This document shows, in pieces, positions 1 to 50,575 of a stretch of 64,000 nt of DNA. The DNA is from Vairimorpha necatrix. Taxonomy: Eukaryota. The notes under the pieces were generated by a model. That model did not search any database. It was given only the letters and a program-made list of their open reading frames with translations, and was not told the DNA's origin. The stretch lies in NCBI GenBank assembly GCA_036630325.1, contig CP142733.1:868001-932000 (forward strand), given 5' to 3'. The translations under genes and the position numbers were made by a program. Every line of letters starts with the position of its first letter. Positions within the stretch are counted from its first letter, which is position 1.

Positions 1-217
1 TTGGCTATTGAAGTTTTTATTTGCTGGGTGGCTTTTCTTTAATAACAATAAAAGTTTTTTAGTTTTTTTTTTGTTATTACCAATCTTGATATTTTTTTTT
101 ACATGGTTTCATTTTATATTAATAATGCGGGTTCCAAACGGGCATGCGTCTGCGTTTTTGTTTATATTAATTTTTTTGCAATTAAATGAATACAATTATG
201 AAGATATTATTAATTTA

Positions 218-3200
218 TGTTATATATTCTTATATTTTTGATCCCCAATTATGATAAATAAATACATGGGGGCGATACCGAATCGTGAGTTAACAAGTGT
301 TGGCTGTAGTCAAGAGGCCAGAAGGTTATTAGAAGAGTTTAAGAGGATTGTTTATGGATTAGTATTGTCTGATTATGATTTTGAGAAAAATGTAAAGAAG
401 GAGATTTTTGATCTTGGAACTGATGAGTTGAAAGAATTTATGGTTAAGAATATTAAGATTGGAGATCATTGGAAAGTTATGGAAATCAAATTAGAGGAAT
501 TGGTTAAAGTACAGGAGGAAAAGGATATGAGATTACGGATGATTGAGGAGGTCACAAAGATGGTGGCAGAGGAGATTAGAAATATTAGTAGAGAGGAAAG
601 AATATTTAAGAAGAGAAGAACAATGAGATGTTATAATTGTTCAAGAATGGGACATAGGAGTCAGATGTGTTATTATAGATATAGAAATGTTAAAAATAAA
701 GACGAATGTGAGAGTATTAAAGAAGAAGGTAGCAGTAGCTGTGGTGAAAGGACTTATAGGAACACATGGGATGCTAAAAGACAAAAGAAACAAGAATGGA
801 AGACAAGAAATAAAAGATGTTATGATGAGGTAGAAAAAAACGGTCTAACATTAGAAGACATGAGAAAGAGGTTTAGGAACGTTATAGACAACGAAGAAGA
901 GAAAATAAGATATTGTAAAATTAAAAAATGCAGAATCAGAACTGAAGAAGGTAAGAAAGTTGTAAGGAAAGGTCAGCAGGTGCCACAAGCGCATAAAGAA
1001 GAGCTGAGAAAATATATTCAGAAGTTAGAGACAAGGAATGTCATAAGAAGATCGACGTCGGAATGGAGAAATCCGATTAAAGCTTTAATTAAGCCAGATG
1101 GAAGTATAAGACTGGTTAGCAATCTCATGGCATTAAATGATTTAGTGGAGAAAGACCCTTATGAATTAGTGAACATTAGAAATATCATAAGGAACACGCA
1201 AGGATCGAAGTTTTTCAGTGTTATAGACCTTAAAGAGGCTTTTTATGGAATCGAAATAGAAGAGCAAGACAAGCATAAGACTGCATTTGAGTATGATAAG
1301 ATAGTATATGAATGGAATAGTATGGTCATGGGGTTTAAAAACTCGCCTCAGATCATGCAGAGAATTATGAATAAGATTTTTGAAAAACATTTGGGTGGTA
1401 AAATAGAAGTATACATGGATGATATAGTGATTCATGCAAAGACTAGAAAAGAACATGATAAATTATTTGTAGAAGCGATGAAATTGTTAGAACGGAATAA
1501 TATGCGGATAAATTCAAAGAAAATTCAGTATTGCCAAAAGGAAGTCAAGTTATTGGGAGTTACATTAAACGGAGATGATATGATGCCGTCTGAAATCAAG
1601 AAAAACGAAGCACTAGAGTTTCCAACGCCGCAGAATGTGTCTGACATAAGAAGATTTTTAGGACTAAGTGGATGGTTTCGAGGATTTATTAAGAATTATG
1701 CGGAGAAGACATTATATATGACTGAAAGTTTGAAAGGTAAAAGTAAAGTATTGAATTGGACTGATGACTTAAATAAAGAATTCGAAAATATGAAGGAAAC
1801 GTTAAGAAGTATGAGTAAGTTGAATATTGTAAACTATGACAAGGAATTTTTATTAAGAACTGACGCGAGCAATATAGGAATGGGCGCAGTACTCATGCAG
1901 AAGAATGATAAAGAAGAGTGGGTGCCAGTACAATGGGCATCGAAGAAATTCACCCCGACGGAAACTAGATATGGTATAAGTGAAAAGGAAATGTATGCCA
2001 TATATTGGGGAATAAAGAAATTTGAGTATGAGTTAAGAGGACGAAAATTTAAAGTAGAAACGGATCACAAAGCAATGGCGGAAATAAGAAGAAAGCCGTG
2101 TTTTAATAATAATAGAATTAATCGATGGATTGAGAAGATCCAAGAATTTGACTTTGAAATAGATTACAGGAAACCAGAACATATGGTCGTGGCGGATGCT
2201 TTGAGTAGGATACACGAGGAGGTTGATCCAAGAAAAGAAATGATAAAAAAAAGAAGTGAGCGTCAAATTGAAGGTAAATGGTTGAAGCACGTCGAGACTA
2301 TAGACGGTAAAGAATACTGGAATTTTGATTCGGGGAGGAAAGCATTGATTCCTAAAATAAAAGAAAGAGATGAGCTTATGAGACGTTATCATGAAGAGCA
2401 TGGACACAGAGGACTAGGAAGCATGTATTATGCCATGAAGTTTGATTGTTATTGGCCAGGAATAATAGAAGATATAGTGAAAATGATAAAAAGATGCGAG
2501 GAGTGTCAAATTTACAATAGGAAAAAGTCTGGAGGATGTGATTTTGTTGCTACAAGCAGGTATTTAGAAAAAGTGGCGTTAGATTTAATTGATTTTAGAG
2601 ATAAGGGCAAATATGTATTAGTTGCGATAGATTACCATACAAGGATAGCGTGGGGATGTGTATTATACGATAAGAAGAGATCCTCTGTGGCCCAGTTTAT
2701 TGAGAACTTATGTAGAAATGGCAGGAGGCCGAAGGAAATAATAACGGATAATGGGAAGGAATTTGATAATGTTGACTTTAAGGATTTGTGTAGAAAATTG
2801 GATATTACCCATAATAAGGTGAGTGTCAAGTCTCATAGAAGCAATGGTAGAGTTGAAAGAGTTATAGGAACGCTTAGAGAGCTAATATTGAAAATGAGTA
2901 AAGAGACGGCGAGTTTTGAAGACATAGTGATGAAAAGCTTGAAAATTTATAATAATAGCTACCATGAAGGTATAAGAAGTACTCCCAATGAAGCGGTAAA
3001 AGACAATACGGGAAAAGTGATGTTATTAAATGGACCAGAAGGAGACTACAGTAAAAGATTTGTTAGAAGATATAGAGAGCGGTTTTTTGAAGGACAACGA
3101 GTAAGGATAGCTAAGAAAGAAAACATCAAAGGATGTAATAAATATGAAAAGGGAAGGTTTTTAGACGAAGGTATTATAATGGTGATATGCCCTGGGGACT

Positions 3201-3361
3201 CGTATGTTGTGAAGCTATCTAATGGGCGATATGTTAAAAGGAGACATTATGACTTGAAAAATCTGCTTGGGGTTAATGGTGATGTAGGAGACTAACCGTC
3301 TTATAGGGGGGATGTTATATATTCTTATATTTTTGATCCCCAATTATGATAAATAAATACA
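218..3361 (+). mobile_element. Intact Ty3/Gypsy LTR retrotransposon (element A, 3144 bp) with 49-bp LTRs
   Basis: Identical 49-bp TG...CA direct repeats at 218-266 and 3313-3361. 5-bp TSD ATTTA (213-217, 3362-3366). PBS TGGGGGCGATACC from 267. PPT AGGGGGGA at 3305-3312. Single ORF. Confidence 0.97.
251..3295 (+). CDS. Retrotransposon polyprotein: short Gag, CCHC knuckle, RT, RNase H, integrase; no protease motif seen
   Basis: CYNCSRMGHRSQMC knuckle. RT: VIDLKEAF, MGFKNSP, YMDD. RNase H: TDAS, EKEM, TDH. Integrase: H..GH..C..C zinc domain, LDLID, ITDNG, NGRVER. Confidence 0.95.
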   Translation: MINKYMGAIPNRELTSVGCSQEARRLLEEFKRIVYGLVLSDYDFEKNVKKEIFDLGTDELKEFMVKNIKIGDHWKVMEIKLEELVKVQEEKDMRLRMIEEVTKMVAEEIRNISREERIFKKRRTMRCYNCSRMGHRSQMCYYRYRNVKNKDECESIKEEGSSSCGERTYRNTWDAKRQKKQEWKTRNKRCYDEVEKNGLTLEDMRKRFRNVIDNEEEKIRYCKIKKCRIRTEEGKKVVRKGQQVPQAHKEELRKYIQKLETRNVIRRSTSEWRNPIKALIKPDGSIRLVSNLMALNDLVEKDPYELVNIRNIIRNTQGSKFFSVIDLKEAFYGIEIEEQDKHKTAFEYDKIVYEWNSMVMGFKNSPQIMQRIMNKIFEKHLGGKIEVYMDDIVIHAKTRKEHDKLFVEAMKLLERNNMRINSKKIQYCQKEVKLLGVTLNGDDMMPSEIKKNEALEFPTPQNVSDIRRFLGLSGWFRGFIKNYAEKTLYMTESLKGKSKVLNWTDDLNKEFENMKETLRSMSKLNIVNYDKEFLLRTDASNIGMGAVLMQKNDKEEWVPVQWASKKFTPTETRYGISEKEMYAIYWGIKKFEYELRGRKFKVETDHKAMAEIRRKPCFNNNRINRWIEKIQEFDFEIDYRKPEHMVVADALSRIHEEVDPRKEMIKKRSERQIEGKWLKHVETIDGKEYWNFDSGRKALIPKIKERDELMRRYHEEHGHRGLGSMYYAMKFDCYWPGIIEDIVKMIKRCEECQIYNRKKSGGCDFVATSRYLEKVALDLIDFRDKGKYVLVAIDYHTRIAWGCVLYDKKRSSVAQFIENLCRNGRRPKEIITDNGKEFDNVDFKDLCRKLDITHNKVSVKSHRSNGRVERVIGTLRELILKMSKETASFEDIVMKSLKIYNNSYHEGIRSTPNEAVKDNTGKVMLLNGPEGDYSKRFVRRYRERFFEGQRVRIAKKENIKGCNKYEKGRFLDEGIIMVICPGDSYVVKLSNGRYVKRRHYDLKNLLGVNGDVGD

Positions 3362-3851
3362 ATTTATATTAAAAATATTAATAGTGGAAATTAGAGTAAT
3401 TAAGCACGACTATCATTAAGGTCGATATCTAATATTATACTTATGTTCTAAATGCATTACTTACAAAAATCAAGAACAAAATTAGTTGTATACATGATGA
3501 CAAAATCTCGCATTACTTTATACAAGAGATGTTATCAAATAGTTTATTTCCGCATATATTTATTGCACAAAAAAGACTTTAGAGTGTAAAGCGAATCATT
3601 GAATATGAGTCTACTTCCAGAAAGATCTCTTTATGCGATAAAATGAACCATTATGGTTTCGAGCTTCTTAAACAAAAATAAAAAAAATTTCAAATAAGAA
3701 GTGCGCAATGAAAAAAGCCTTTCGAGCATTTTAACAATAATAATAGGAATTTCAAAACAAATACAATATTATTGATGCATCACAATAATAAAAATTAGAC
3801 ATAATTAATGTCGTAGTTTTTTTAAAAAATTTATTTATTTTTTATCTTTTT

Positions 3852-9974: not shown

Positions 9975-10215
9975 GTATGATATTATAATGCTTTATATTG
10001 AAGTTATATTGAATTTATTTCGAGTTTATTTTATATGATACTATTAATACTTTATTATGAGTTTGTTATATAGATATTATTAATGCTTTATTATGAGTTT
10101 GTTATATATAATGTTATTAATACTTTATTCAAGTTAATTTTGAAGTTATATTGAGTTTATTTTGTTTTTATTTTGAAGTTATATTAAGTTTGTTATGAGT
10201 TTGTGATGAGTTTGT
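9975..10215. repeat. Imperfect AT-rich tandem repeats
   Basis: Recurrent TATTAATRCTTTATTATGAGTTTGTTATATA and TGAAGTTATATT units. Confidence 0.6.
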
Positions 10216-10412
10216 TTGTTTCAAATTCGAAAAAAAATATTCCGCATAAACACCATAAAGAACAAATAATTAAATTTTGTTTTTTTTCTATACATCCATT
10301 TCTATTGGTAGACCATTTGACACATTATATAATTTCATTATATTTTGACACATTATTTCTATTGGTTATCTCCTTTTTGTTTTCTTTAAATATTCCTCCC
10401 CTATTATTTATT

Positions 10413-11171
10413 ATGAAAAAATTCAGAATTATAAATTCTAATACTTCTAATTTCCCTGATAATGTCATTTGTAACATGAAATACAGATGGTATTCAATAA
10501 TCTTCTCTGTTTTACTAAACCAATTTGAATTCTTTTACAACTCATTTTTCTTTTTAATTTCCATATCTCAATGTATAGAAAAATTTGCTATAAATTCTCC
10601 TATTACTTCTTTAGGCCCATGGCTCCTTGTTTATTTCATTAATCTACTTAAAGAATCTTTTGATGATTATAAAAGAAACGAAAGAGATTATAATATAAAT
10701 AACCAAATGTATACTGTTTATAGAAATAAACAGTTTAGAAATATAAGATCTAAGAATATAAAAGTAGGAGATTTTATAATATTAGAAAAGAATCAACGTG
10801 TACCAGCAGACTGCTTGTTATTGAAGACTAGTGATCAAACAGGACAATTGTTTTTGAGAACTGATCAATTAGATGGAGAAACAGATTGGAAATTGAGGAC
10901 AGCTGTACGAATGATACAAAAAGAAACTTTTATTATTAATTTTAAAGATGTTAAAATTTTGGCGGAAGAACCAAATAAAGAGATTTATAAGTTTAATGGA
11001 GTTATAAGTAAAGAAGAAATAGATTTGAAAGGAATAAATTTAGAAGAACCGAGAAAAAAAGGATTTTTTGATTTAATAAAAAAACAAGAAGAGGAAGAAG
11101 GAGAAGTAGTAAATGAAGAAGTGTACAGTTTTATAACAAAAATAAAGACAGAAGGAATTATTAATAAAGAC
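10413..11171 (+). CDS. NEO1: P4-type ATPase (NEO1-like phospholipid flippase), 5' part, interrupted by an LTR element
   Basis: FPDNVICNMKY, TM1-2, VGDFI, RVPAD, TDQLDGETDWKLR. The frame continues into the LTR after codon GAC (11169-11171). Confidence 0.88.
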
Positions 11172-13604
11172 TGTGGACTGATGGTTTCCCATCAGTCCGA
11201 GAAGAATGTTTTAAACTATAATTTTTATTGTTCTTCATCTTCATACCCCAAGGGTATGATTTTCTTTTATATTTATAGGCGGGAAAATATTGTACATTTT
11301 CCCCCCATAAACATAGTTTGGTAAAGGAGGAGAATACTTATAGAATAGTATTCTCTAGTCTCCAGGGTAATCTTAGGACCACTGGAGATCTGTCACTTGA
11401 CACTCCCCCCTTCTTTAAAGGCTCCTAGGTTACCATTTGTTGACGCGTCTTCAAGTACTTCCAGTTAATAGCGAATGCGTCATTATTTAGGCTATATACT
11501 TTATAGACTCCCTCTATTCCAACCGTAGGAATAGTATATGACTTTTTCATTTTGTCAATTCCTTTCTTCTGAATGCTTATCGGTGGTTTTCGCTTTCGTA
11601 CTACGTCCCGAACTCTATGAACACTTAATTTCACATTGTCTTTAACTTTTTCCTTTTCATTTCTTGGTTTCTTCCGCGAGTAAGCGATAGATGTATAACG
11701 AAGCATTTCTTTTTCGTCGGAGTCTTTCCGCCATCCATTTATCATTTTAATAGATCTAAATTGTCTATTTATAAGCTCCGGCAGCATACTGCCCCTATAA
11801 ATTTTTTTCCTCCTTTTTTTGTGAGGTATATGTTCTCTGCCTTTCCCCCAGGTATTTAGCTGTAGGTATTTTAACTTCAATTCAAAGTTTGTCAATACGG
11901 GTGGATCATGTAATTTTTGTATTAAAGGATGTGGGTAAAACTCTTTTTTTTTACTTCTGTTAAGTTTTCCCTTGTCATTACAAATTACCATGTCACTGAA
12001 AGATGCTTTGATTGGAGCGACCGGGAGAGTAAACGTCGATACAGTTTCTTCCTTTCCAATTTTACTCAAAAGCACTTTGGGCTTGACTCTTATCGCTTCC
12101 CTTTGACCTAATGGTCTCCTATGTTGGATGCACTTAGATTCCGGACAATCCTTTAGCTCATCTATAACATTGCTACTACTAAAGCTTAAGTTTTGGTCTT
12201 TAATATGGAAAGCCTTCGAATGTACTATGGCAAGTTTATAACTTTTTTCTTTTCCTTCTTGAAAGTAATTTTCTTTTACAATGTCTGTTAGATGTGTTTC
12301 GGATATTTTTCCCGTTGTGCAGACAGATTTCGTTGCTATAGCGCCATCTATTTTATCAAACCTTTTAAGTAGATTTAGTTTCTTGGCATCTACTATGCCA
12401 ATTATAAAGTCTTCCGGTAATTTATCTATTACGTAAGCCTCGATCATTTCATTTTTCTTGATCTTGGGCCTCTTTATAAAGACTTGTATTTTTCCTCCTG
12501 ATTTGACCTGGCCCCCTATTCCTTCAACCGTAAGAGTTTCTTTTGTTGGCTTTAATTTTAGTTTTTGAATCATTGTTTTACTAATGAGATTCACTTGAGA
12601 TCCGGTATCAATAAGAGCGGAAAATTTTATCGTTCCCGAATATAGATTTATCCTCGGGCGGATATCTTGTAGTTTAGTAGTCGATTTCATTTCTCCTATC
12701 CTTAAAAGCATGGCAGAATTTACTTGTTCTGCTTTTTCTTCAAAAATTTTATTATCTTTTTTTTCTCGTATGATAGCTTCATAAGATGGTTTTCTACTAA
12801 ATGTTTTCTTTTTGTTTAAATGATAATTTATAAGAGTTTGTTTGTTCTCAACTAATTCCAGCAATTCCAACCAATCTTTCGTTTCTTTAATAGGCTCCTT
12901 CAACTTATCAGGGGAGTTCCTTCCTATAGAAATCTTTGATCTGGCAAAATATTCAGGGTTTCCTTTTGCATATCTTTTGAGGTCATAAGCGTAATTTAAA
13001 ATGTCGCTTTCCTTTGGACCTTCCACATATAAATGCATGAACCTATCTGCTATATCTTCTGTTAGTTTCTCTTTTAAATACTTTTTTTTAAACTGGGTTT
13101 TGAATGAATCATAGTCTGTAATTTCATCACCCTCGAACGCTTTGAACCATGTTAACGCTTTGCCTTTAAGTTTAGATTTGGCAATATCTAGCGTTTTATC
13201 TTGCGTATACACATCCTCAATTTCGCGGAACTGAGTTAAAAAATCTTCGGCTTGTTTTAAAGTTTCGCCGTTAAATTCTGTCCACCTATTTCTCAGACAT
13301 ATTTTTTCCATGTGCGTGATGAGACTATTAAAGTGATCGTTCAAATCCTCGTCACCGTTACCACCATTGTGGACTGATGGTTTCCCATCAGTCCGAGAAG
13401 AATGTTTTAGACTAATATTTTTATTATTCTTCATCTTCATCTTCATACCCCAAGGGTATGATTTTCTTTTATATTTATAGGCGGGAAAATATTGTACATT
13501 TTCCCCCCATAAACATAGTTTGGTAAAGGAGGAGAATACTTATAGAATAGTATTCTCTAGTCTCCAGGGTAATCTTAGGACCACTGGAGATCTGTCACTT
13601 GACA
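11172..13604 (-). mobile_element. Non-autonomous LTR retrotransposon (element B, 2433 bp) inserted in the NEO1-like gene
   Basis: LTRs at 11172-11402 (231 bp) and 13368-13604 (237 bp) with TG...CA ends. TSD AAGAC (11167-11171, 13605-13609). Minus-strand PBS TGGTGGTAACGG. PPT AAGAAGGGGGGAG. Confidence 0.96.
11425..13446 (-). CDS. Gag + aspartic protease + degenerate RT fragment + integrase-C-terminal-like tail
   Basis: Gag-like LKGKALTWF...DYDSFKTQF. Protease ALIDTGSQVNLI and DFIIG. RT-like remnants ICNDKGKLN, YPHPLI, ELKLKYLQL. No YxDD, RNase H or DDE core. Confidence 0.85.
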   Translation of the reverse strand: MKMKMKNNKNISLKHSSRTDGKPSVHNGGNGDEDLNDHFNSLITHMEKICLRNRWTEFNGETLKQAEDFLTQFREIEDVYTQDKTLDIAKSKLKGKALTWFKAFEGDEITDYDSFKTQFKKKYLKEKLTEDIADRFMHLYVEGPKESDILNYAYDLKRYAKGNPEYFARSKISIGRNSPDKLKEPIKETKDWLELLELVENKQTLINYHLNKKKTFSRKPSYEAIIREKKDNKIFEEKAEQVNSAMLLRIGEMKSTTKLQDIRPRINLYSGTIKFSALIDTGSQVNLISKTMIQKLKLKPTKETLTVEGIGGQVKSGGKIQVFIKRPKIKKNEMIEAYVIDKLPEDFIIGIVDAKKLNLLKRFDKIDGAIATKSVCTTGKISETHLTDIVKENYFQEGKEKSYKLAIVHSKAFHIKDQNLSFSSSNVIDELKDCPESKCIQHRRPLGQREAIRVKPKVLLSKIGKEETVSTFTLPVAPIKASFSDMVICNDKGKLNRSKKKEFYPHPLIQKLHDPPVLTNFELKLKYLQLNTWGKGREHIPHKKRRKKIYRGSMLPELINRQFRSIKMINGWRKDSDEKEMLRYTSIAYSRKKPRNEKEKVKDNVKLSVHRVRDVVRKRKPPISIQKKGIDKMKKSYTIPTVGIEGVYKVYSLNNDAFAINWKYLKTRQQMVT

Positions 13605-13790
13605 AAGACAATTGTAAAAATGATTTCAAAGACAATTGTAAAGATAATTGTAAAAATGATTTCAAAGAGGTGAACAAAGAGGTGAACAAAGATGATTACA
13701 AAGAGGTGAACAAGCTAGTCAATGTCAATGAAGACAATACTAAAGATAATTATAAAGATTATAAAAATATTTATAAAGATGATCATAAAG
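13605..13790 (+). repeat. Coding tandem repeats (KDNC/KNDF/KEVN units) in a low-complexity loop of the ATPase A-domain
   Basis: Repeated 12-bp units such as AAAGACAATTGT and AAAGAGGTGAAC. Confidence 0.75.
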
Positions 13791-16117
13791 AAGGACTCTC
13801 ACTTGAAAATATGCTTTGGATGAACACAGTAGTCGCAACTTGCTCAGCTTTGTGCTGCGTAATTTACACTGGAAATGACACTAGGGCAATGTTAAACACC
13901 TCAAAACCAAGAAATAAAGTAGGGTCATTTGACAATGAACTAAATACTTATAGTAAGTTCCTAGGAGCAAGTAGTATCATAATTGCTGCTTTCTTCGCTT
14001 ATATGAAAGGTTTCTCTTCTAATGGTCCAGTGGCCTTTGTTAGATTTCTAGTCTTATTTTCTTCTATAATTCCAATATCTTTAAAAACAACAATAGACAT
14101 GGCGAAATATGTCTACTCTTACTCAATCTCAAATGATACGAAGATTCCTAATACTATAGTAAGGAATTCTTCAATTCCTGAGGAATTAGGAAGAATTTCT
14201 TATTTTTTAACTGACAAAACAGGCACTTTAACAAAAAATGAAATGGAAATGAAAAAAGTCCATTTGGGCACTTCTGCCTTTACACAAGATTTAAATGAAG
14301 AAATTTCCAAGAAATTGGCGAAATATTCAAGTAAGAAAAATGAAAAATCAAATATTTTTAGTAGAAATAAAAAAGATATAAATCATAGATTATATGAATT
14401 AGTAGAAGGATTATGTGTTTGTCATAATGTTTCACCTGTAATTGATCAGAATACGATTTCTTATCAAGCTTCATCTCCTGATGAAGTGGCTATAGTAAAA
14501 TGGACAGAAAGTGTAGGAATGAAATTATTTAGAAGAGATAAAGAGACTATTACGATATTAGACTCATTAAATGATGAATTAGTTTATGAAATATTAGAAA
14601 TATTCCCATTTACTAGTGAAACAAAAAGGATGGGAATTATAGTAAAAAAACTTAATAATTATGAGTCATCAGAAATATTTTTTATTTTAAAAGGTGCGGA
14701 TGTAGTAATGAATAAAATAATTCAATATACAGATTGGGTAGAAGAAGAAACAGAGAATATGGCTAGAGAAGGATTAAGGACACTTGTTATAGGAAAGAGA
14801 ATATTGACTGAAAGTCAATATTCTCTTTTTAAAAATGAATATGAAAAAGCCAAATCAAGTATAAGTAATAGAAATGAAAATATAAATAAAGCTATGGAAA
14901 TTATAGAAACAGACTTGACAGTCTTGGGCCTTACAGGCGTAGAAGACAAATTACAAGATAAAGTGAAAATATCTTTAGAAAATCTTAAGAATGCAGGTAT
15001 AAAAATCTGGATGTTAACAGGGGACAAAATAGAGACGGCGATTTCTATCGCCGCCTCTTCTAAAATATTTGATAAAACTACAGAATATAAAATTATAACA
15101 GAAGATGATTTAGATTTATTAGACAAAGGGGTGTTTAAAAGATTAGACGCTTTAGTTATAGACGGGAATACATTGAATATTGTCATGGAGAAATGTTTTA
15201 ATAAATTTATAGAAGCTTGTTTAGATTTAAAAAGTCTCATAGGCTGTAGATTTAGTCCAACTCAAAAGGCTTTAGTGGCTAGAGCCTTAAGGCTCCAAAG
15301 TAAGAAAATTGTCTGTTGTATTGGCGACGGGGGAAATGATGTGTCAATGATTTTAGAAGCGAATGTTGGTGTGGGAATAGTAGGGAAAGAAGGAAATCAG
15401 GCTTCTCTTGCCGCAGATTTCTCTATAGAGAAATTCTGCTTTGTCATGGACTTATTTTTCTGGCATGGTAGGAATTCTTATTCTAATTCTGTCTCAATTA
15501 CTTATCTAATTATTCATAGAGGAACAATCTTGTCAGTTTTACAAGGACTCTTTTGTGCTCTTATTAATTTTATACCTTTTAATATTTATCATGGTTATAT
15601 TTTAGTCGCTTTCATTTCTTGTTACACTTTCTTCCCAATTTTCAGTACTGTCTTTTCTCTTGATGTGTCAAGGGAAGTTACAGACATGTTCCCTGAATTG
15701 TATAAAGAATTAGTTGATAATCCTTTATTGACTATAGGAGAATTCTTATTATGGAATTTCATGTCTTTTTATCAAGGTACAATTATAATGTTATTTATGA
15801 TTTATAGATTTGAAAGAGAATTATTTTCTATAAGTACTTTGACTTTTACAAGTCTAATAATCAATGAAATATTAATGGTATTTCTTACTACTCCGAGGAT
15901 TAGTAAACATACTATTATGGCGTGTGTCATGTCTTTATTCTTTTATTTACTTTCATTCGTATTGTTCCGTGATTTGTTTTATATAAATATGGGATTTTTT
16001 CAATTTATAAGAGAGGTGTTAATAGCCAATTTGATAGCGATAGTGCCAAAGATATTGACAAAGGGAGTGAAGTATTGGAAACCGAGTAGTAGTAGCAAAT
16101 TAGAGAGTCGTGTGTGA
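13610..16117 (+). CDS. NEO1: P4-type ATPase (NEO1-like), 3' part
   Basis: YTGNDTR, IIPISL, PEELG, DKTGTLT, SPDE, KGAD, GLRTL, TGDK, GDGGND, C-terminal TM helices. Joins the 5' part in frame (..INKD|NCKN..) when the element and one TSD are removed. Confidence 0.92.
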   Translation, partial: NCKNDFKDNCKDNCKNDFKEVNKEVNKDDYKEVNKLVNVNEDNTKDNYKDYKNIYKDDHKEGLSLENMLWMNTVVATCSALCCVIYTGNDTRAMLNTSKPRNKVGSFDNELNTYSKFLGASSIIIAAFFAYMKGFSSNGPVAFVRFLVLFSSIIPISLKTTIDMAKYVYSYSISNDTKIPNTIVRNSSIPEELGRISYFLTDKTGTLTKNEMEMKKVHLGTSAFTQDLNEEISKKLAKYSSKKNEKSNIFSRNKKDINHRLYELVEGLCVCHNVSPVIDQNTISYQASSPDEVAIVKWTESVGMKLFRRDKETITILDSLNDELVYEILEIFPFTSETKRMGIIVKKLNNYESSEIFFILKGADVVMNKIIQYTDWVEEETENMAREGLRTLVIGKRILTESQYSLFKNEYEKAKSSISNRNENINKAMEIIETDLTVLGLTGVEDKLQDKVKISLENLKNAGIKIWMLTGDKIETAISIAASSKIFDKTTEYKIITEDDLDLLDKGVFKRLDALVIDGNTLNIVMEKCFNKFIEACLDLKSLIGCRFSPTQKALVARALRLQSKKIVCCIGDGGNDVSMILEANVGVGIVGKEGNQASLAADFSIEKFCFVMDLFFWHGRNSYSNSVSITYLIIHRGTILSVLQGLFCALINFIPFNIYHGYILVAFISCYTFFPIFSTVFSLDVSREVTDMFPELYKELVDNPLLTIGEFLLWNFMSFYQGTIIMLFMIYRFERELFSISTLTFTSLIINEILMVFLTTPRISKHTIMACVMSLFFYLLSFVLFRDLFYINMGFFQFIREVLIANLIAIVPKILTKGVKYWKPSSSSKLESRV

Positions 16118-32010: not shown

Positions 32011-33228
32011 TTATTTTCTTATTGCTTGCTCTTCTCTGCCGTCCAAATATTCTTGATATTCTTTTCTCTTTTCCTCATATTTATCAGCATCCCCATATTT
32101 TTTCATAATCTTCAATGTTAAATTAATTACCTTTTCCGCATCTTCTTTATTATACCTATCAATATAAAACGTCTTAAAAACAATATAATTAGCATTTTTT
32201 ATACTTGCACGATTTTCACTCATTGCGACAAATAATTCTCTGGCAGACATATCGATAAAAGATTCTTGTAATCCGCTTGCATTCATATTCTTTTTAGATG
32301 TTACTCTTAATATTCCACCGGCAAGGTAATATTCAGTATCGGGATTCGCGTAAAATTCTGGATGATGATCTTCAGACTTGAAGTGGATTTTCCAACCTAC
32401 ATTGAATAATGTGATAAAGAAATCTTTAATATCATTCTTTATCAGTTTATTCCAAGACTCGACCAATTTACTTGTTTTATCATTGGCGATAAAAAACTTA
32501 AAGGTGTAACCTATTGATAGGTCCAGTAGATATTTTGACCAATCATGACAAAATATGTTTACCATATTGCAATCAGGCAAGAATTCAAGTAACTCGCTGT
32601 AATTGTCAAATAGAAGACTTTTATGGACGACAATTTCATCGTAATGTTTTTTTACTCCGTATTTGTTGTAAATCAGATCAGGCAAGATACCGCTTTTATT
32701 TGTTAACAAATCAATTTCAAGATTTTTCCATTCATCCAAAGTAAGTCTGTTTAATGAAATTAGTATTTGATCGTCAGAATTACCGCTTTCAGTTCCGAGT
32801 TGCAAGTTATGGATCAGTTCGTACATTTCATTATTTTCCAGATATAAACGAATATGATTCTCAATATCTTGAATCTTCAAAGACACAGCATCATTGTCAA
32901 TTTTCCAGTTATTATTTTCAATAGCTTGCTTAGTGAATTTCGCAAACAATTCACTTGTCTCGGCCAATTTAGTTTTAAATTTTTCAATATCTGCATTCGC
33001 TGCAAATTCATAAGATTCGTTATACGTGACATTATAAAGCCTTTGCAATATAAGCATTGTCATTAATCTTTCTCTTGGCCAATTATATTCTTTCGCTTTA
33101 TTTAGTATAATATCGGCTGTAAATAATGGAGTAGTCGATTTCACGATAAACTTTTTATCTTGATTTTCTGAATTAGATGTTGCTAAAATAGAATTTAAGA
33201 ATAGTAAAGTCGTATTGATCAGATTCAT
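32011..33228 (-). CDS. Secreted HD-superfamily (DUF5662-like) protein, paralog 2
   Basis: Signal peptide MNLINTTLLFLNSILA. CHDWSKY, WKIHFKSEDHHPEF, ESFID. Colinear with 22275-23501. Confidence 0.75.
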   Translation of the reverse strand: MNLINTTLLFLNSILATSNSENQDKKFIVKSTTPLFTADIILNKAKEYNWPRERLMTMLILQRLYNVTYNESYEFAANADIEKFKTKLAETSELFAKFTKQAIENNNWKIDNDAVSLKIQDIENHIRLYLENNEMYELIHNLQLGTESGNSDDQILISLNRLTLDEWKNLEIDLLTNKSGILPDLIYNKYGVKKHYDEIVVHKSLLFDNYSELLEFLPDCNMVNIFCHDWSKYLLDLSIGYTFKFFIANDKTSKLVESWNKLIKNDIKDFFITLFNVGWKIHFKSEDHHPEFYANPDTEYYLAGGILRVTSKKNMNASGLQESFIDMSARELFVAMSENRASIKNANYIVFKTFYIDRYNKEDAEKVINLTLKIMKKYGDADKYEEKRKEYQEYLDGREEQAIRK

Positions 33229-38999: not shown

Positions 39000-39049
39000 A
39001 AGGGCGGAAAATTAAGAAAAAAGAAGTTTCAAAATTTATTGGTCTATGA

Positions 39050-39290
39050 AAATCTAGACATGTAAAAATTTAAATATGCTGGACATGTAAAAATCTAAAT
39101 ATGCTAGACATGTAAAACTTGTAAAAATCTAAATATGCTAGACATGTTAAACTTGTAAAATTTAAATATGTTTAAAATGTAAAAATCTAAATTTGCTAGA
39201 CATGTAAAAATCTAAATTTGCTAGACATGTAAAAATCTAAATATGTTAAATTTGTAAAAATTATTTAAATATGCTGGACTTGTAAAATTC
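39050..39290. repeat. Tandem repeat, about 25-bp unit, filling a divergent intergenic region
   Basis: GCTAGACATGTAAAAATCTAAATAT and variants, about 8 copies. Confidence 0.9.
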
Positions 39291-39318: not shown

Positions 39319-40176
39319 ATGAATTTTTCTGTTTCTAATTTTCGCACTGACGAGAAGCTTTTCTCGATTCACATTAATAAAAATATTTACACAGGAGGTA
39401 CTTCTACTTTTCTCAAAGATGTGAGTAATAATGTTATTTTGTATAAACATGACAAGTCTATTACTCATATTACAAGTAGTGGGCCTTTCCTGGCTTGTAG
39501 TAGTTACGACTGTACAGTCTCAATATTCAAGGTCGAGAACATTGTCTATAAGTTAGAAGATGTCATTGAAGGACCAGACACAGAAATAAAATGCGTGTCT
39601 TTTGATTCTTCAAATTCTTGGCTGGCTTTCGCCACTAGGGGCAAATCCGTCTGGATTTGCCGTATAAATGAGTACATAGAAATCCATAAGATTTTAGAAG
39701 ACCACACTGAAGATGTAAAAGGCTGCCTTTTCTTTCTCGATTTCTTCGTCTCTTTCGGCTATGACAACACTATAAACCTCTACCAATATTTCAAATATAA
39801 TGAAGAATGGGAATTAGTTCAAGAAATAGAAGAAGAAGACACAGTCTGGAATGTGGTCTTTATAGAAGACAGGATGTATTCCTGTAATGCCAGTGGTGAG
39901 ATTTCTCTATATGTATTAGATAAAGGATATACTTTAAAAAAGAGGAAGAAGTTTAGTCATTTGCCCATTTTGGCACTGTGCGCTTATAAAAACAGACTTG
40001 TGGCGGGTTTAAATTTGGGAGACTTGATTTTCTTAGATTTAAATTTGGAAATAGTCCATGAGATGGAGAAAATACACACGGGATTTATAAATTGTGTTTA
40101 TTATTCAGAAAAAGATGAAATTTTAGGAACATGTAGTGATGATCAAACTTACAACATCCTCAAAGAAGAAGAATAA
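39319..40176 (+). CDS. CIA1: Cytosolic Fe-S assembly WD40 protein Cia1
   Basis: IEGPDTEIKCVSF, TRGKSVWI, LEDHTEDVK, SFGYDNTI. CCCC before the ATG. Confidence 0.88.
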   Translation: MNFSVSNFRTDEKLFSIHINKNIYTGGTSTFLKDVSNNVILYKHDKSITHITSSGPFLACSSYDCTVSIFKVENIVYKLEDVIEGPDTEIKCVSFDSSNSWLAFATRGKSVWICRINEYIEIHKILEDHTEDVKGCLFFLDFFVSFGYDNTINLYQYFKYNEEWELVQEIEEEDTVWNVVFIEDRMYSCNASGEISLYVLDKGYTLKKRKKFSHLPILALCAYKNRLVAGLNLGDLIFLDLNLEIVHEMEKIHTGFINCVYYSEKDEILGTCSDDQTYNILKEEE

Positions 40177-43280: not shown

Positions 43281-44393
43281 ATGGGTGAATTTGGCCAACA
43301 AATATTAAAAACATCGTATGAAATATTTAATTGTCTCTTACAACAAGAAAAAGGGACTTTTGTCGTTTCCCCCTTTTCTATTATAAATATGCTAGGTATT
43401 TTGTTAAATGGATCTAACGATACTTTAAAAAACAAAATGAAAAAAATTTTAGGCAATACTGTGGATTTTAACAATGATATATCTAAAATCTACAACCAGC
43501 TGAAAATTTCTTTAGAAGATCTTAATTCTGCAACATTAAATTTAAATAACTATGTTTTCCATGATATGCGGATGAAAGTATTGCCAGATTTTAGAGAAAC
43601 GTTGGCAAGATATCTGATATCAGAGTTGAAACCAGTTTATCTGGCGTTATTTGATGATTTTCAAAATCTAATAAACAAAACAGTGTATACAGACACTAAC
43701 GGATTATTAGATAAAATATCAGATGACCTACCGGATGATCTAAAAGTTTTAATACTAAATACTGTATATTTTAAAGAATCATGGAGATTTCCATTTTCAG
43801 TTGATCATGAAAATGAATATTTTTTTAATGGCGATAAAAAATTTAAAGTACCAATGATGAAAATAAGAAAAAAATTTAAGGCAGCTGATACTGAAAAATT
43901 TAAAGTAGTACAAATCCCTTTTGCAAATCCTACATATTCATTTTTAGGAATATTGCCAAAAACAAATAACTTCTCGAATATTAGAATTTCTGATGTTTTG
44001 TCTAGTCTAAAACTTCATGATGTATTTATCAGTATGCCGAAATTTACGATTGAAACAGAGATTGATATTAAAGATAAACTAAAACTTGAGAATTTACAGG
44101 GAATATTTGACGGACATAGCTTTTTAAATATATTCAAAGACACTGCAATTACTAACCCCGAGTTAATACATGTAGCTGTGATTGATATTGACGAAAAAGG
44201 AACTTCTGCTTCGACTGTAACCTATGAATATGCTATTACGTGTTTGTTACATCCAAAAGAAATAATATTTGAATTTAATAGCCCGTTTTTGTTTTATATT
44301 ATTAAAACCATAACTAATAATAGTAGCCATAATAACTTCAAGCAATTGCCAATAATTATGGGTAGATATACAGGACATGATATGAATAAATAA
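43281..44393 (+). CDS. Serpin 2 (inhibitory-type hinge, no signal peptide)
   Basis: VVSPFSI, TNGLL, NTVYFKESW, VPMM, MPKF, IDEKGTSAST, FNSPFLF. Confidence 0.95.
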   Translation: MGEFGQQILKTSYEIFNCLLQQEKGTFVVSPFSIINMLGILLNGSNDTLKNKMKKILGNTVDFNNDISKIYNQLKISLEDLNSATLNLNNYVFHDMRMKVLPDFRETLARYLISELKPVYLALFDDFQNLINKTVYTDTNGLLDKISDDLPDDLKVLILNTVYFKESWRFPFSVDHENEYFFNGDKKFKVPMMKIRKKFKAADTEKFKVVQIPFANPTYSFLGILPKTNNFSNIRISDVLSSLKLHDVFISMPKFTIETEIDIKDKLKLENLQGIFDGHSFLNIFKDTAITNPELIHVAVIDIDEKGTSASTVTYEYAITCLLHPKEIIFEFNSPFLFYIIKTITNNSSHNNFKQLPIIMGRYTGHDMNK

Positions 44394-45514: not shown

Positions 45515-46834
45515 TTAATTATTTGGTCCTGTATATCTTCCAACTACTACTGGAAAAAAAGGAGTTTCTAAGTTCTCATCGCTCTTCACTTGTAGTTTCC
45601 TAATATCGAACAAATAAAATACAAAAGGTCTGTTACAAAAATAATTAATACTATGTTTATCATTCAAAAATGATTCGTTTTGAAGATTTGTTTCTTCTGT
45701 ACATATTCCTGATTCATTAAATTCAATAGTAGTTTTATGCTTTATATTCATTTTTATAATGTCATAAGGAGAAAAGCTAGAATTTAGTTTAAACTCTTTA
45801 TCCATGAGATCTGAGTGAAAAAACGTATTTAAAACTTTATTGAGATTGCATTCAGTTTCGATCTCAAACTTAGGCAGTTCTAGGTCAACGTTCTGTATTG
45901 TACAATCTCCACTAATCAGTTTTCTAAATTCAATTTTGAATTCCAAAAGAAGTTGCTCCGGAATGTAGAAATTTTTATCAGGCAAAACTATTACTAAACA
46001 TAATACACCAAAAAAATCTTTTAGGTCAATGCGTAAAAAATGAAGCTTATTTTTATACAAAACATGAAATATATTCTTTTGCTTCATCATTGATACCTTA
46101 GAAGTTTTATCCTTATTATAAAATTTTTTCATTGATGTATGTTCGGGATTAAATTTATTTAACCACTCTCCTTTGAAGTACACACTATTAATTAAAAATA
46201 ACGGTCTCTCTGGGGAAAATAAGGATTTGTTTCTAAATAACGCATTTATAATTCTCATAAACTTATTACTTACATTTTCCGAAGAATTTGAATCTTTTTC
46301 ACATTTAAATCTAAATATTTTTTTACATCTTTCTATATAATCGTATATTTTTTGTCTTTTATCATGACATAACAAATTTTTAACCCCGGGTTGTACATCT
46401 ATATTTGTCAAAGAACTAATATGATTTTTCATATCGTGGTAAAAGGACTCGTCAAGCCTAAACCCATAAGTTTTAAGAATATTTAAAAATGATTCTTTTA
46501 TCTCGCCTTCTGTAATTTGTAAAAGCATACAAAGTGTAGAACAAAAGCCATACGGCGAGAAGACATCACTCTTAAAACTATCAGTGATGGCCGCTAGTAC
46601 TGCATTGTATACTTCGCCTTCAACCAAAGTACCCTTACCAATACTATACAATGTTCTCAATCTTTTTATTTCACATAACATTCTTTCCATGGCCTCCATT
46701 CTTTTCCCCAATCGTGCAACTTCCTTATTTTTATCAAAATAAATATCTTCAGATGTATTTCTGATTTCGTTATACATGTGTAAAATACTTAAATTACATA
46801 TAATCATTAACTTATATTGAAAAAAAATATCCAT
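45515..46834 (-). CDS. Serpin 3 (N-terminal extension, divergent hinge)
   Basis: FSPYG, NSVYFKGEW, VSMMKQ, IVLPD, LPKF, FNESG, CNRPFVF. Confidence 0.93.
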   Translation of the reverse strand: MDIFFQYKLMIICNLSILHMYNEIRNTSEDIYFDKNKEVARLGKRMEAMERMLCEIKRLRTLYSIGKGTLVEGEVYNAVLAAITDSFKSDVFSPYGFCSTLCMLLQITEGEIKESFLNILKTYGFRLDESFYHDMKNHISSLTNIDVQPGVKNLLCHDKRQKIYDYIERCKKIFRFKCEKDSNSSENVSNKFMRIINALFRNKSLFSPERPLFLINSVYFKGEWLNKFNPEHTSMKKFYNKDKTSKVSMMKQKNIFHVLYKNKLHFLRIDLKDFFGVLCLVIVLPDKNFYIPEQLLLEFKIEFRKLISGDCTIQNVDLELPKFEIETECNLNKVLNTFFHSDLMDKEFKLNSSFSPYDIIKMNIKHKTTIEFNESGICTEETNLQNESFLNDKHSINYFCNRPFVFYLFDIRKLQVKSDENLETPFFPVVVGRYTGPNN

Positions 46835-49237: not shown

Positions 49238-50575
49238 TCAGAGATCATAATTAGGACCTGTATATCTTCCTACTAACAAAGGAAAAATAGAGGTCATTAA
49301 ATCCTCATTTTTACCAACTTGTATGTTTCTGGTATCAAACAAATAAAATACAAAAGATCGGTTGCAGTGGTAACTAATTAAAAGATCATCAATGATTTCT
49401 GATTCATATAACGGATTTGACTCTTGTGTGGATACTCCAGACTCTGTGAATTCAATTGCAGCTTTCTGTCTTATATTCATTTTTTTATTGTCAGAAGATT
49501 TTGATTCGCTAACATAACCCAAAAGTTCGTCCATAAGATCGCATTCTAGAAAAGATCCAAATACTTTTTTAAGATCACACTCTGTTTCGATCTTAAACTT
49601 CGGAATTTCTAAATCTACGTTGAAAGATTGACAATCACCTGTAATCAGCTTCTTAAATTCATTTTTAAATTCAAAATGCAGATATTCAGGAAGGTAAATA
49701 TCTGTATCAGGTAAAATTATAACTAAATACAGCAAATCTGATTTTTCCTTAAGATCCATTTGTAGAAAATGTAATCCATCTTCATATAAATATTTAAATA
49801 CACCTTGTTGTTTCATCATTGGCACTTTGAAATACTTCTTTCCATTATAAAATTTTTTTAAGGCAGTGTTCTTGGGATTAAATTGTTTACACCACTTACC
49901 CTTAATATTAATCGTGTTAATCACAATTAATGGCCTCTCTATTTGGTGATTAATAAAATTATTAAAAGTTTTAGAGATTTGATTGAAAACATTTAGACTT
50001 ACATCGTCAAATTGGTTCTCATCATCTTTAAAATATTGTATTACTTCTTCAACATTAAATTCATTTTTACATTTTTTAAGTAATTTTTCAATTTTCTCAT
50101 TTTTGTCATGGCACAACAAATTTTTAATTCTTACCTCGTCACATTTACAGGTTAGCGATGAGAAGTTCTTATTCATTTCTTCGATAAATGAATCGTCTAA
50201 GTTATATCCATGGTTTTCAATAATTTTTAATAAATTTTTTTTAGTGTTACCATCAGTGATTTGTAACAAAACGCAAAATATGGTGCAGAAACCATACGGA
50301 GAAATGATGTCACTTTTAAAATTATCAGCGGAGGCGGATATTATTGCCTTATATACAACCCTCTCAATTGGTCTGAAGTCACTATAAATAGAATCAATTA
50401 TGAGCTCCCTTGCACTTAACCTATCTTCCACTGCTTGAGTTCGTTTTCCTAGTCGAGATTCTCCTCTATATTTATCTAAGTCAGTACATTCGGTTGTATT
50501 TCTGATTTCGTTGTACATATGTAAAATGCTTAAATCACATAGGACCATGAGCTTGTGGTAGAAATTCCTTGCCAT
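49238..50575 (-). CDS. Serpin 4, tandem paralog of serpin 3
   Basis: ISPYG, KGKW, VPMMKQ, IILPD, IPKF, FTESG. Shares LSILHMYNEIRNT with serpin 3. Confidence 0.93.
   Translation of the reverse strand: MARNFYHKLMVLCDLSILHMYNEIRNTTECTDLDKYRGESRLGKRTQAVEDRLSARELIIDSIYSDFRPIERVVYKAIISASADNFKSDIISPYGFCTIFCVLLQITDGNTKKNLLKIIENHGYNLDDSFIEEMNKNFSSLTCKCDEVRIKNLLCHDKNEKIEKLLKKCKNEFNVEEVIQYFKDDENQFDDVSLNVFNQISKTFNNFINHQIERPLIVINTINIKGKWCKQFNPKNTALKKFYNGKKYFKVPMMKQQGVFKYLYEDGLHFLQMDLKEKSDLLYLVIILPDTDIYLPEYLHFEFKNEFKKLITGDCQSFNVDLEIPKFKIETECDLKKVFGSFLECDLMDELLGYVSESKSSDNKKMNIRQKAAIEFTESGVSTQESNPLYESEIIDDLLISYHCNRSFVFYLFDTRNIQVGKNEDLMTSIFPLLVGRYTGPNYDL

Follow-up and report, generated by a model that had tools for sequence, protein, structure and literature searches.

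Two Ty3/Gypsy-Type LTR Retrotransposons in the Window

The window, that is, the whole 64-kb stretch of DNA that was analysed, contains two structurally complete LTR retrotransposons of the Ty3/gypsy type, element A on the + strand (218-3361, ~3.1 kb) and element C on the - strand (23537-26720). Their features are given below in the order of their coordinates.

Element A
213..217, +: left target site duplication (TSD), ATTTA, read from the sequence and identical to 3362-3366
218..266, +: 5' LTR, 49 bp, TG...CA, an exact repeat of 3313-3361
221-226, 243-246, 251-253 and 257-262, +: signals of the 5' LTR, respectively TATATA (followed by a T-tract), CCCC, ATG and AATAAA
251..3295, +: single intact ORF, 1014 aa, its ATG inside the LTR, running through the putative primer binding site (PBS)
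266-268, +: second in-frame ATG, spanning the LTR/PBS junction
267..279, +: PBS, TGGGGGCGATACC, adjoining the 5' LTR and translated as (M)GAIP
aa 20-124 of the ORF, +: Gag-like helical lobe (AlphaFold)
629-670, +: Zn knuckle, aa 127-140
aa 145-197 of the ORF, +: disordered linker (AlphaFold)
1091-1567, +: reverse transcriptase, RT (Pfam)
1757-2149, +: RNase H (Pfam)
2360-2812, +: integrase Zn and core domains (Pfam)
3288..3301, +: conserved block GAGACTAACCGTCT, just 5' of the polypurine tract (PPT), from the comparison of A, C and the related locus L081
3303..3312, +: PPT, ATAGGGGGGA, whose GGGGGGA abuts the 3' LTR
3313..3361, +: 3' LTR, 49 bp, identical to the 5' LTR
3362..3366, +: right TSD, ATTTA, read from the sequence, a perfect 5-bp duplication

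Element C
23532..23536, -: 3' TSD, TTATA on the - strand, read from the sequence, perfect
23537..23585, -: 3' LTR, 49 bp, an exact copy of the 5' LTR
23586..23592, -: PPT, GGGGGGA, abutting the 3' LTR
23613..26687, -: single intact ORF, 1024 aa, with the domain order of A and no protease
26659..26671, -: PBS, TGGGGGCGATACC, the same 13 nt as in A
26672..26720, -: 5' LTR, 49 bp, with CCCC at 26693-26696 and ATG at 26685-26687
26721..26725, -: 5' TSD, TTATA on the - strand, read from the sequence, perfect

The first-pass annotation had described pairs of identical 49-bp LTRs and perfect 5-bp TSDs in both elements, and exact matching and direct reading of the sequence verified this. The LTR string of A had exactly two exact matches in the window, with 0 expected from 100 shuffles. 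A repeat finder gave repeats of 50 and 51 nt; the additional bases are chance matches between TSD and PPT and between TSD and PBS, and the TG...CA units are thus of 49 nt. We also recovered in both elements the common LTR layout that had been noticed (CCCC, ATG from nt 34, AATAAA at nt 40-45 and an ACA end). Counted from the start of the LTR of A, TATATA occupies nt 4-9, CCCC nt 26-29, ATG nt 34-36 and AATAAA nt 40-45, with ACA at the terminus; in C, CCCC lies at nt 25-28 and the positions of ATG and AATAAA are those of A. The two elements are 82% identical in their LTRs and 66.5% in their internal DNA, and their proteins are ~58-59% identical in the alignment.

The PBS TGGGGGCGATACC, which starts with TGG, is common to A and C over 13 nt, beyond which the sequences diverge. 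The ORF had been proposed to begin in the LTR and to cross the PBS as M-G-A-I-P, and this holds for the intact ORFs of 1014 and 1024 aa, whose N-termini both read M-x-N-K-x-M-G-A-I-P from the in-LTR ATG through the PBS. Within the 64-kb window, TGGGGGCGATACC and the PPT string GGGGGGA were found at A and C only, and string searches with LTR, PBS and PPT recovered no further full copies or solo LTRs. The sole Rfam match was a tRNA-Val, the elements themselves matching no ribozyme or other RNA family. No other tRNA was present in the window, and the 3' end of this tRNA-Val(AAC) showed no complementarity to the PBS; a search for the PBS complement in two MAGs gave three chance matches, none of them in a tRNA. 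The block GAGACTAACCGTCT upstream of the PPT is invariant in A, C and L081 except for one inserted or changed base. A hairpin formed by this block was also considered and then dropped, its stability being that of shuffled sequences (z 0.06 to 0.82); the conservation of the sequence stands.

A Protease-Less Polyprotein With a Reduced Gag

The Pfam domains detected in the A and C ORFs were, in order, RVT_1, RT_RNaseH, Integrase_H2C2 and rve, together with a weak zf-CCHC match whose score was under the cut-off; no protease family was detected in these ORFs by Pfam. The absence of the protease had been overlooked in the first-pass annotation. None of the 48 closest matches (P0003-P0050) carries a protease Pfam family, whereas more distant matches have one, and a D[ST]G motif before the RT was found in 0 of the 18 aligned members. 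Between the knuckle and the RT of A, AlphaFold predicted only the disordered stretch of aa 145-197 (pLDDT <50). We thus classed A and C as a protease-less derivative lineage of Ty3/gypsy rather than as canonical members, since no protease was detected.

Gag is reduced to ~125 aa plus the knuckle, the motif CX2CX4HX4C being present in 17 of the 18 aligned members. The capsid lobes of Arc and Ty3 were the top fold matches of the Gag lobe (Z <=5.7), residues 20-95 giving Z 5.1-5.7 against the Arc C-lobe and the Ty3 CA-NTD, which is the noise range for helical models. In a search of a protein atlas the Gag part reached a best score of 0.84, which we consider as a lead only. The autonomy of these elements is doubtful, since they lack a protease and their Gag has one capsid-like lobe at most. 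The unprocessed polyprotein may work as such, or a protease may be borrowed from protease-encoding elements of the same genome.

A Microsporidian Family With Short LTRs

The elements had been presented as members of a family, and the named microsporidian relatives of A and C agree with this. The family consists of microsporidian polyproteins of ~1000 aa with a Gag-like helical lobe, a Zn knuckle, RT, RNase H and integrase, and its named members come from Vairimorpha ceranae, V. necatrix, Nosema granulosis, Enteropsectra breve and Pseudoloma neurophilia. A cluster at 90% identity comprised 31 members, V. ceranae proteins included, and a protein 98% identical to the C ORF (1008/1024) was present in another data set. 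Distant matches were Ty3/gypsy-type polyproteins. Judged from the best named protein matches, the source of the window is a Nosema/Vairimorpha-like species. In public databases the family proteins are named "hypothetical protein", "endonuclease" or "krab-a domain-containing protein", and elements of the family were also found in bacterial MAG bins. In a quick tree with a midpoint root, the protease-less clade (17 rows) obtained an SH-aLRT support of 100; its members cover several microsporidian genera, down to ~32-40% identity, with intact ORFs of ~1000 aa. A scan of metagenome contigs with a generic RT motif (alignment A1) recovered only Ty3/gypsy loci 25-35% identical (L001-L080), which were left out of all comparisons, and a scan of viral contigs recovered no relative.

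The Met at the LTR/PBS junction is present in 15 of the 18 aligned members and missing in the other three; it is followed by G or A in 15/15 cases, as the CA/TGG junction requires. In 13/18 members the called ORF begins upstream of the junction, and the upstream in-LTR ATG is not universal.

Two related loci on metagenomic contigs, with the same boundaries and with PBS and PPT, have LTRs of 58 bp (L087) and 75 bp (L093). The closest named relatives of L093 are microsporidian, and its LTR displays the order TATATA, T-tract, CCC, ATG, AATAAA and ACA. In the LTR of L087, AATAAA lies upstream of CCC and there is no in-LTR ATG. L087 was considered as a protease-less element, having no Pfam protease, and rejected as such when a motif scan revealed LLDTGAQ at aa 225; it is protease-encoding. 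The protease-less L081 ends with a PPT (GGAGGAGGGGA, abutting the 3' LTR) followed by TGTT...CCCC...AATAAATG...ACA, and its LTR is possibly of 38 bp. An LTR layout like that of A and C was also recovered in L089, in L081 and in element B, which lies in the same window. The TSDs of L087, L093 and L089 do not match, so that LTR lengths at these loci rest on repeats, PBS and PPT alone; the mismatches may be due to chimeric assembly. Deletion of longer LTRs, an alternative named with the initial proposal, does not account for the short ones: two elements only 58% identical in protein both have 49 bp, and the 58 and 75 bp of their relatives indicate that shortness is an inherent property of the LTRs in these lineages.

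Resemblance of the LTR to Host Gene Starts

A CCC-like motif at microsporidian gene starts, often preceded by a T-tract, is described in the available parts of PMC2685015, PMC2803860 and PMC11592040; in N. ceranae, according to the first of these, it lies <=15 nt from the start. In the window, 11 of 21 host ORF starts have CCC at a distance of <=12 nt on their upstream side, vs. 97 of 2308 (4.2%) of all ATGs. The CCCC-to-ATG distance in the LTR is 4 nt in A and 5 nt in C, and TATTTTTACCCC of C shares 11 of 12 bases with the N. ceranae motif TTTTTTTACCCC (PMC11592040). Judging from these motifs, the LTR resembles host gene starts in its build, with a TATA-like box, a T-tract, CCCC and an ATG 4-5 nt further on. 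The earlier suggestion of a host-type core promoter in the LTR is in line with both the enrichment at host starts (11/21 vs. 4.2%) and the 11/12 bases of the N. ceranae motif. Only 4 nt separate AATAAA from the end of the LTR. Microsporidian transcription is known to overrun genes, AAUAAA being recognised stochastically (PMC2803860).

Discussion

Comparison With Known Elements

The Nbr elements of Nosema bombycis were reportedly described by Xu et al. in 2006. In the available part of PMC2474625, elements of N. bombycis are described, second-hand, as Gag-protease-RT-RNaseH-integrase; unlike them, A and C have no protease, the comparison being by description only. Ty3/gypsy groups that are specific to microsporidia and encode a single polyprotein are reported in the accessible passages of Parisot et al. 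2014 (PMC4202319), and A and C are similar to these groups in their microsporidian host, their RT-RH-IN core and the presence of one ORF instead of gag plus pol. No LTR lengths were found in the passages and supplement available from that article, and the word "protease" is absent from its main text as available.

Ty3 of Saccharomyces cerevisiae also produces a 5-bp TSD, and its LTRs are ~340 bp long. A and C differ from it in having 3.1 kb, one ORF, no protease and 49-bp LTRs. According to the available part of PMC4974528, Ty3 has the RT-RH-IN order and a polypurine tract, as found in A and C, together with tRNA priming beside the 5' LTR and a Gag with CA-like and CCHC parts, as predicted for A and C (the fold match being weak here). 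It differs in its length of 5.4 kb, in having GAG and POL as two ORFs and in encoding a protease (PMC4974528). The same excerpts place the PBS of Ty1 (S. cerevisiae) within the GAG ORF, with the translation start upstream, as in A and C; an LTR-started ORF with the PBS inside gag is already known from Ty1 (PMC4974528). Ty1 differs from A and C in belonging to the Pseudoviridae, with the order PR-IN-RT. Its LTRs are several times longer than 49 bp.

The shortest LTRs that we found in print, in the open-access literature, were those of two elements of grasses, FRetro129/SMART, a 292-bp non-autonomous element with an LTR of 85 bp, and FRetro64, a 5.2-kb copia element with LTRs of 76 and 90 bp (PMC3281118). 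They share with A and C the TG...CA ends and a TSD of 5 bp (PMC3281118). They are plant Ty1/copia elements, unlike A and C, which are coding elements of the Ty3/gypsy type of ~3.1 kb with 49-bp LTRs. The same literature yielded no described LTR <76 bp and no protease-less microsporidian LTR element.

Proposed Replication Cycle and Rival Explanations

We consider it quite probable that A and C inserted recently, are structurally complete and belong to a protease-less microsporidian lineage of the Ty3/gypsy type, following the standard replication cycle with near-minimal cis elements. In this scenario, nt 1-~30 of the LTR would correspond to U3, combining the integrase end with a host-type core promoter, and transcription is predicted to begin downstream of CCCC and ahead of the ATG at nt 34, in the manner of host genes whose 5' UTRs are very short. 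The last 16-20 nt of the LTR would be R (plus U5) and would hold the start codon and AAUAAA as well. The AAUAAA of the 5' copy would be too near the cap for use, and that of the 3' copy would direct cleavage at or just past the end of the element. Cleavage within the LTR would occur at an unusually short distance from AAUAAA, which is 4 nt from the LTR end, and the model therefore assumes that 3' ends are formed in flanking DNA. A tRNA, with tRNA-Pro as a candidate guessed from the TGGGGGC start, would prime on the putative PBS, minus strong-stop DNA of ~16-20 nt would anneal to its counterpart of 16-20 nt in the 3' LTR, the PPT would prime the plus strand, and integrase would produce the 5-bp duplication.

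Some of the initial claims have to be revised. The short R had been taken to imply an unusual strand transfer; the predicted ~16-20 nt fall in the lowest part of the range of retroviral R regions, 16 to 247 nt in the available part of PMC6088434, where the 16-nt R of MMTV supports first-strand transfer. An exotic strand transfer would not be required. MMTV is different from A and C in being short in R only. Its LTR as a whole is long. The reading of identical LTRs as a sign of recent activity was overstated, the identity of two 49-bp repeats being a weak means of dating.

We regard as rather improbable the explanation in which the LTR is not a promoter, the genomic RNA being produced by read-through from host promoters and ending at downstream host signals. 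The whole or part of the 49-bp LTR would then be the terminal repeat, and the likeness in CCCC, ATG and AATAAA would be incidental or translational. The overrunning of genes and the stochastic use of AAUAAA in microsporidia (PMC2803860) would fit such a scheme, as would the position of AAUAAA 4 nt from the LTR end, with 3' ends probably in flanking DNA, and the LTR of L087 with its inverted order of CCC and AATAAA and its lack of an in-LTR ATG. However, the spacing of T-tract, CCCC and ATG copies a host motif (11/21 starts vs. a 4% background), the A-C conservation is higher in the LTR (82%) than in coding DNA (66.5%), and L093, L089, element B and L081 have this layout as well. Furthermore, strong-stop DNA running into the flank would mismatch the 3' end. 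It is still less credible, indeed close to negligible, that the 49-bp repeats are artefacts, either of assembly error or as remnants of longer LTRs that were deleted. Nothing positive argues for this beyond the fact that just two copies were examined, whereas A and C have LTRs of equal length and different sequence in 58%-identical elements, bounded by TSD and PBS/PPT, and the LTRs on independent contigs of another source measure 58 and 75 bp, with the same boundaries.

The autonomy of the protease-less elements is a separate matter. They could be non-autonomous, Gag and/or protease being supplied in trans by protease-encoding Ty3/gypsy elements of the same genome or the protease by the host, which we consider unlikely while granting it an appreciable chance. 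This is compatible with the LTR acting as a promoter. The finding of a protease in 0/18 aligned members and 0/48 closest matches and the small Gag (~125 aa plus knuckle) would be in agreement with non-autonomy, and potential donors exist: protease-encoding microsporidian families are abundant, and element B, in the same window, encodes Gag and an aspartyl protease (Pfam). Yet element B is itself internally deleted, and the deep, well-supported clade with intact ORFs of ~1000 aa points to long-term success as a unit.

Returning to A and C as complete elements with a promoter in the LTR, we propose only tentatively, and with more doubt than confidence, that their clade represents the smallest self-sufficient LTR retrotransposons yet described, with ~3.1 kb, 49-bp LTRs, no protease, a one-lobe Gag and an unprocessed Gag-RT-RH-IN fusion. 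In such an element the LTR would consist of a copied host core promoter of 30 nt and a coding R of ~16-20 nt, and the 3' end of the RNA would form outside the element.

Implications

Standard LTR finders typically use a minimum LTR of ~100 bp. With such a cut-off, this clade would be systematically missed in the annotation of microsporidian genomes, and recognising its elements would be a gain for microsporidian and metagenomic repeat annotation and for contamination screening. The same 64 kb also contains another element whose insertion disrupts a gene. Together, the intact copies and the gene-disrupting insertion suggest that transposons are still active in this parasite, whose genome is compact. 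If our interpretation is true, these elements would set a new lower bound for the content of an LTR, ~30 nt of U3 and ~16-20 nt of R, and would represent a retroelement that adopted the compact promoter grammar of its host, raising the question of whether an LTR retrotransposon can replicate without a protease of its own and with a one-lobe Gag.

Termini of Elements A and C

The two LTR strings listed in the first-pass annotation for elements A and C, both LTR retrotransposons of the Ty3/gypsy type, were each recovered exactly twice in the window, with no occurrence expected in shuffled sequence. A repeat finder returned repeats of 50 and 51 nt for A and C, the canonical TG...CA units being 49 nt; the extra bases are chance matches, of the last TSD base to the last base of the PPT and, in element C, of the first PBS base to the first TSD base.

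Termini and open reading frames of elements A and C
218-266 and 3313-3361, + strand: LTRs of element A (exact string match)
213-217 and 3362-3366: TSD of element A, ATTTA, both pentamers identical
251-3295, + strand: single ORF of element A, 1014 aa
26672-26720 and 23537-23585, - strand: LTRs of element C (exact string match)
26721-26725 and 23532-23536, - strand: TSD of element C, TTATA, both pentamers identical
26687-23613, - strand: single ORF of element C, 1024 aa

The 13 nt adjoining the 5′ LTR on its inner side (the PBS, TGGGGGCGATACC) are common to A and C, which diverge thereafter, and GGGGGGA (the PPT) lies immediately upstream of the 3′ LTR in both. Neither motif occurs in the window outside A and C, and neither solo LTRs nor a third full copy of this type turned up in the 64 kb. 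A short ORF at 55972-56475 (- strand) weakly resembles the integrase core (Pfam rve, E 3e-4) and is probably the remnant of another retroelement; besides A and C, the sole tblastn match in the window, at 56080-56475, is 29% to the element A integrase.

A conserved block reading GAGACTA(A/C)CCGTCT is found just 5′ of the PPT at 3288-3301 (+) in A, at 23597-23609 (-) in C and at about 2699-2712 in L081, a protease-less retroelement from a metagenomic contig that is 51% identical to A; its context is non-coding or a stop codon. A possible AGAC/GTCT hairpin in this block was no more stable than in shuffles. By analogy with Ty3, we speculate that the block may be a cis signal, such as a second tRNA contact.

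Coding Content and Relatives

The A and C proteins are 59% identical and match, in order, RVT_1, RT_RNaseH, Integrase_H2C2 and rve of Pfam, a CCHC knuckle scoring under the curated cut-off. No Pfam match to an aspartic protease was obtained in either ORF, and the 48 nearest database proteins (P0003-P0050) were equally devoid of any Pfam protease family, unlike more distant Ty3/gypsy matches. The motif D[ST]G was likewise absent N-terminal to the RT in all 18 aligned members, and in the AlphaFold model (mean pLDDT 77) disorder marks aa 145-197, the segment that links the knuckle to the RT. Judged from sequence and model, the missing protease is a trait of the whole family. Single-polyprotein Ty3/gypsy elements are already known in microsporidia according to part of PMC4202319; the Nosema bombycis elements, as described in a section of PMC2474625, differ from the A/C family in having a protease. 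The N-terminal part, modelled alone, is confidently predicted (pLDDT 83) to form three short helices and one long (aa 17-124); its top structural matches were the Arc C-lobe, the Arc CTD and the Ty3 capsid NTD, with Z values (5.1-5.7) inside the noise that the fold-search tool states for helical models, and a single N-terminal capsid-like lobe is a lead only.

The nearest named proteins belong to Vairimorpha necatrix (69%, at a query coverage of 78%), Nosema granulosis, Enteropsectra breve and Pseudoloma neurophilia, and one 90%-identity cluster of 31 members includes V. ceranae proteins. In a midpoint-rooted quick tree, for which SH-aLRT gave the only support values and the careful search was incomplete, the protease-less sequences formed one clade with a support of 100 (17 rows), or 97 with the Pseudoloma protein. 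The protease-encoding element L087 neighbored this clade, and L093 and L089 grouped in a separate microsporidian clade; all three come from metagenomic contigs. The MAGs behind L081 and L082, labelled Clostridium and Turicibacter, gave 44 and 15 polyprotein matches, on many short contigs, and several of the ORFs are intact (1100-1300 aa); this is eukaryotic, microsporidian-type retroelement DNA binned with bacteria.

LTR Length

The A and C LTRs differ in sequence, with the same length and motif order, and are more similar to each other (82% identity) than the internal DNA (66.5%). Two MAG bins with many retroelement contigs yielded perfect LTRs of 58 bp in L087 and 75 bp in L093, and LTRs of about 176 bp in L089. 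The LTR of L093, whose nearest named relatives are microsporidian (V. necatrix, 64%), has the order seen in A and C: TATATA, T-tract, CCC, ATG, AATAAA, ...ACA, then TGG. Short LTRs are thus not limited to the protease-less clade, L087 and L093 being protease-encoding elements. Of L081, only the 3′ end is present, with a PPT followed by TGTTGGGTTATTAGCCCCTATTAAATAAATGACTAACA; taking its last CA as the LTR terminus would give a putative length of 38 bp, the 5′ LTR being absent. The flanking TSDs of L087, L093 and L089 mismatch, a weak point for these elements that we put down to chimeric contigs assembled from several copies. Within the DNA available for comparison, the 49-bp length is intrinsic to A and C. 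The shortest published LTRs that we found, in part of PMC3281118, are those of FRetro129 (85 bp) and FRetro64 (76 and 90 bp); searches of the open-access literature yielded no description of LTRs below 76 bp, nor one of microsporidian LTR elements that form a protease-less lineage.

Element B and Host Genes

11172-13604, - strand: element B, third LTR element of the window
11167-11171 and 13605-13609: TSD of element B, AAGAC

Element B has LTRs of 237 and 231 bp (96% identical) and a 673-aa ORF encoding Gag and an aspartyl protease, with only a degenerate stub of RT; this ORF starts inside its own 5′ LTR, downstream of TATAAATA and CCC. Element B lies within the coding region of a gene for a P4-ATPase (flippase; 10188-16114, +), and removing the element with one TSD copy restores a continuous frame of 1163 aa.

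The host genes (four serpins, two DUF5662, a DEAD-box helicase, a Ras-family GTPase and RRP40; 28% G+C) fit a microsporidian of the Nosema/Vairimorpha type. The serpin genes lie within 22 kb (28679-29902, 43281-44393, 45515-46834 and 49238-50575), two of them joined by the repeat finder over a 251-nt stretch at 70% identity, and the DUF5662 genes (22275-23501 and 32011-33228) flank element C, one per side. Imperfect direct repeats of some 25 nt each, resembling ATGTAAAAATCTAAATATGCTAGAC, form an array at 39035-39279, directly 5′ of a WD40 gene (39319-40176).

The LTR as a Proposed Host-Type Promoter

The window has 21 ORFs that reach 150 aa and belong to none of the elements; 11 of these carry CCC at most 12 nt upstream of the ATG, versus 97 of all 2308 ATGs (4.2%). 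The CCCC of the LTR precedes the in-LTR ATG by 4 nt in A and 5 nt in C. In N. ceranae, a motif lies within 15 nt of the start according to a passage of PMC2685015 and is quoted as TTTTTTTACCCC in an excerpt of PMC11592040; the element C LTR includes TATTTTTACCCC. Microsporidian AAUAAA signals are located near the stop and stochastically recognised, as stated in part of PMC2803860. The same order of TATAAATA, CCC, ATG and AATAAA is present inside the longer LTRs of the unrelated element B. The L089 LTR copies differ just 5′ of the in-LTR ATG (GGAGGGATG versus GGGCCCATG), the GGG-for-CCC swap that PMC2803860 describes for some microsporidian promoters.

Proposed Replication Cycle and Translation Through the PBS

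With transcription starting directly after CCCC, U3 would correspond to about LTR nt 1-30 and R (plus U5) to about nt 30-49, containing the start codon and AAUAAA. The AAUAAA of the 5′ LTR would be inactive because it is too close to the cap; that of the 3′ LTR lies so close to the terminus (4 nt) that cleavage would probably occur in flanking DNA, which should be no bar to the annealing of a 16-20-nt minus strong-stop DNA to the 3′ copy. We see no need for the unusual strand transfer proposed in the first-pass annotation, as a passage of PMC6088434 puts the minimum for a retroviral R at 16 nt. The 3′ end of the only tRNA in the window, tRNA-Val(AAC), fails to match the PBS. From the TGGGGGC start of the PBS, we would guess tRNA-Pro as the primer; the A/C PBS presumably resembles the tRNA-Pro PBS of murine leukaemia virus.

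The element C ORF is 98% identical (1008/1024) to a database protein of the same length from another data set, P0004, which shows H->Y at an LTR codon and I->T inside the translated PBS, implying a changed 11th PBS base; the strictly conserved PBS core may thus be shorter than 13 nt. The column at the LTR/PBS junction holds Met in 15 of the 18 aligned members, always followed by G or A (15/15), as CA|TGG read A|TG-G.. gives, and in 13 of the 18 the ORF was called from further upstream, within the LTR. By this pattern and the upstream calls, translation through the PBS is a family-wide trait, for which Ty1, with its PBS inside the GAG ORF according to part of PMC4974528, provides a precedent.
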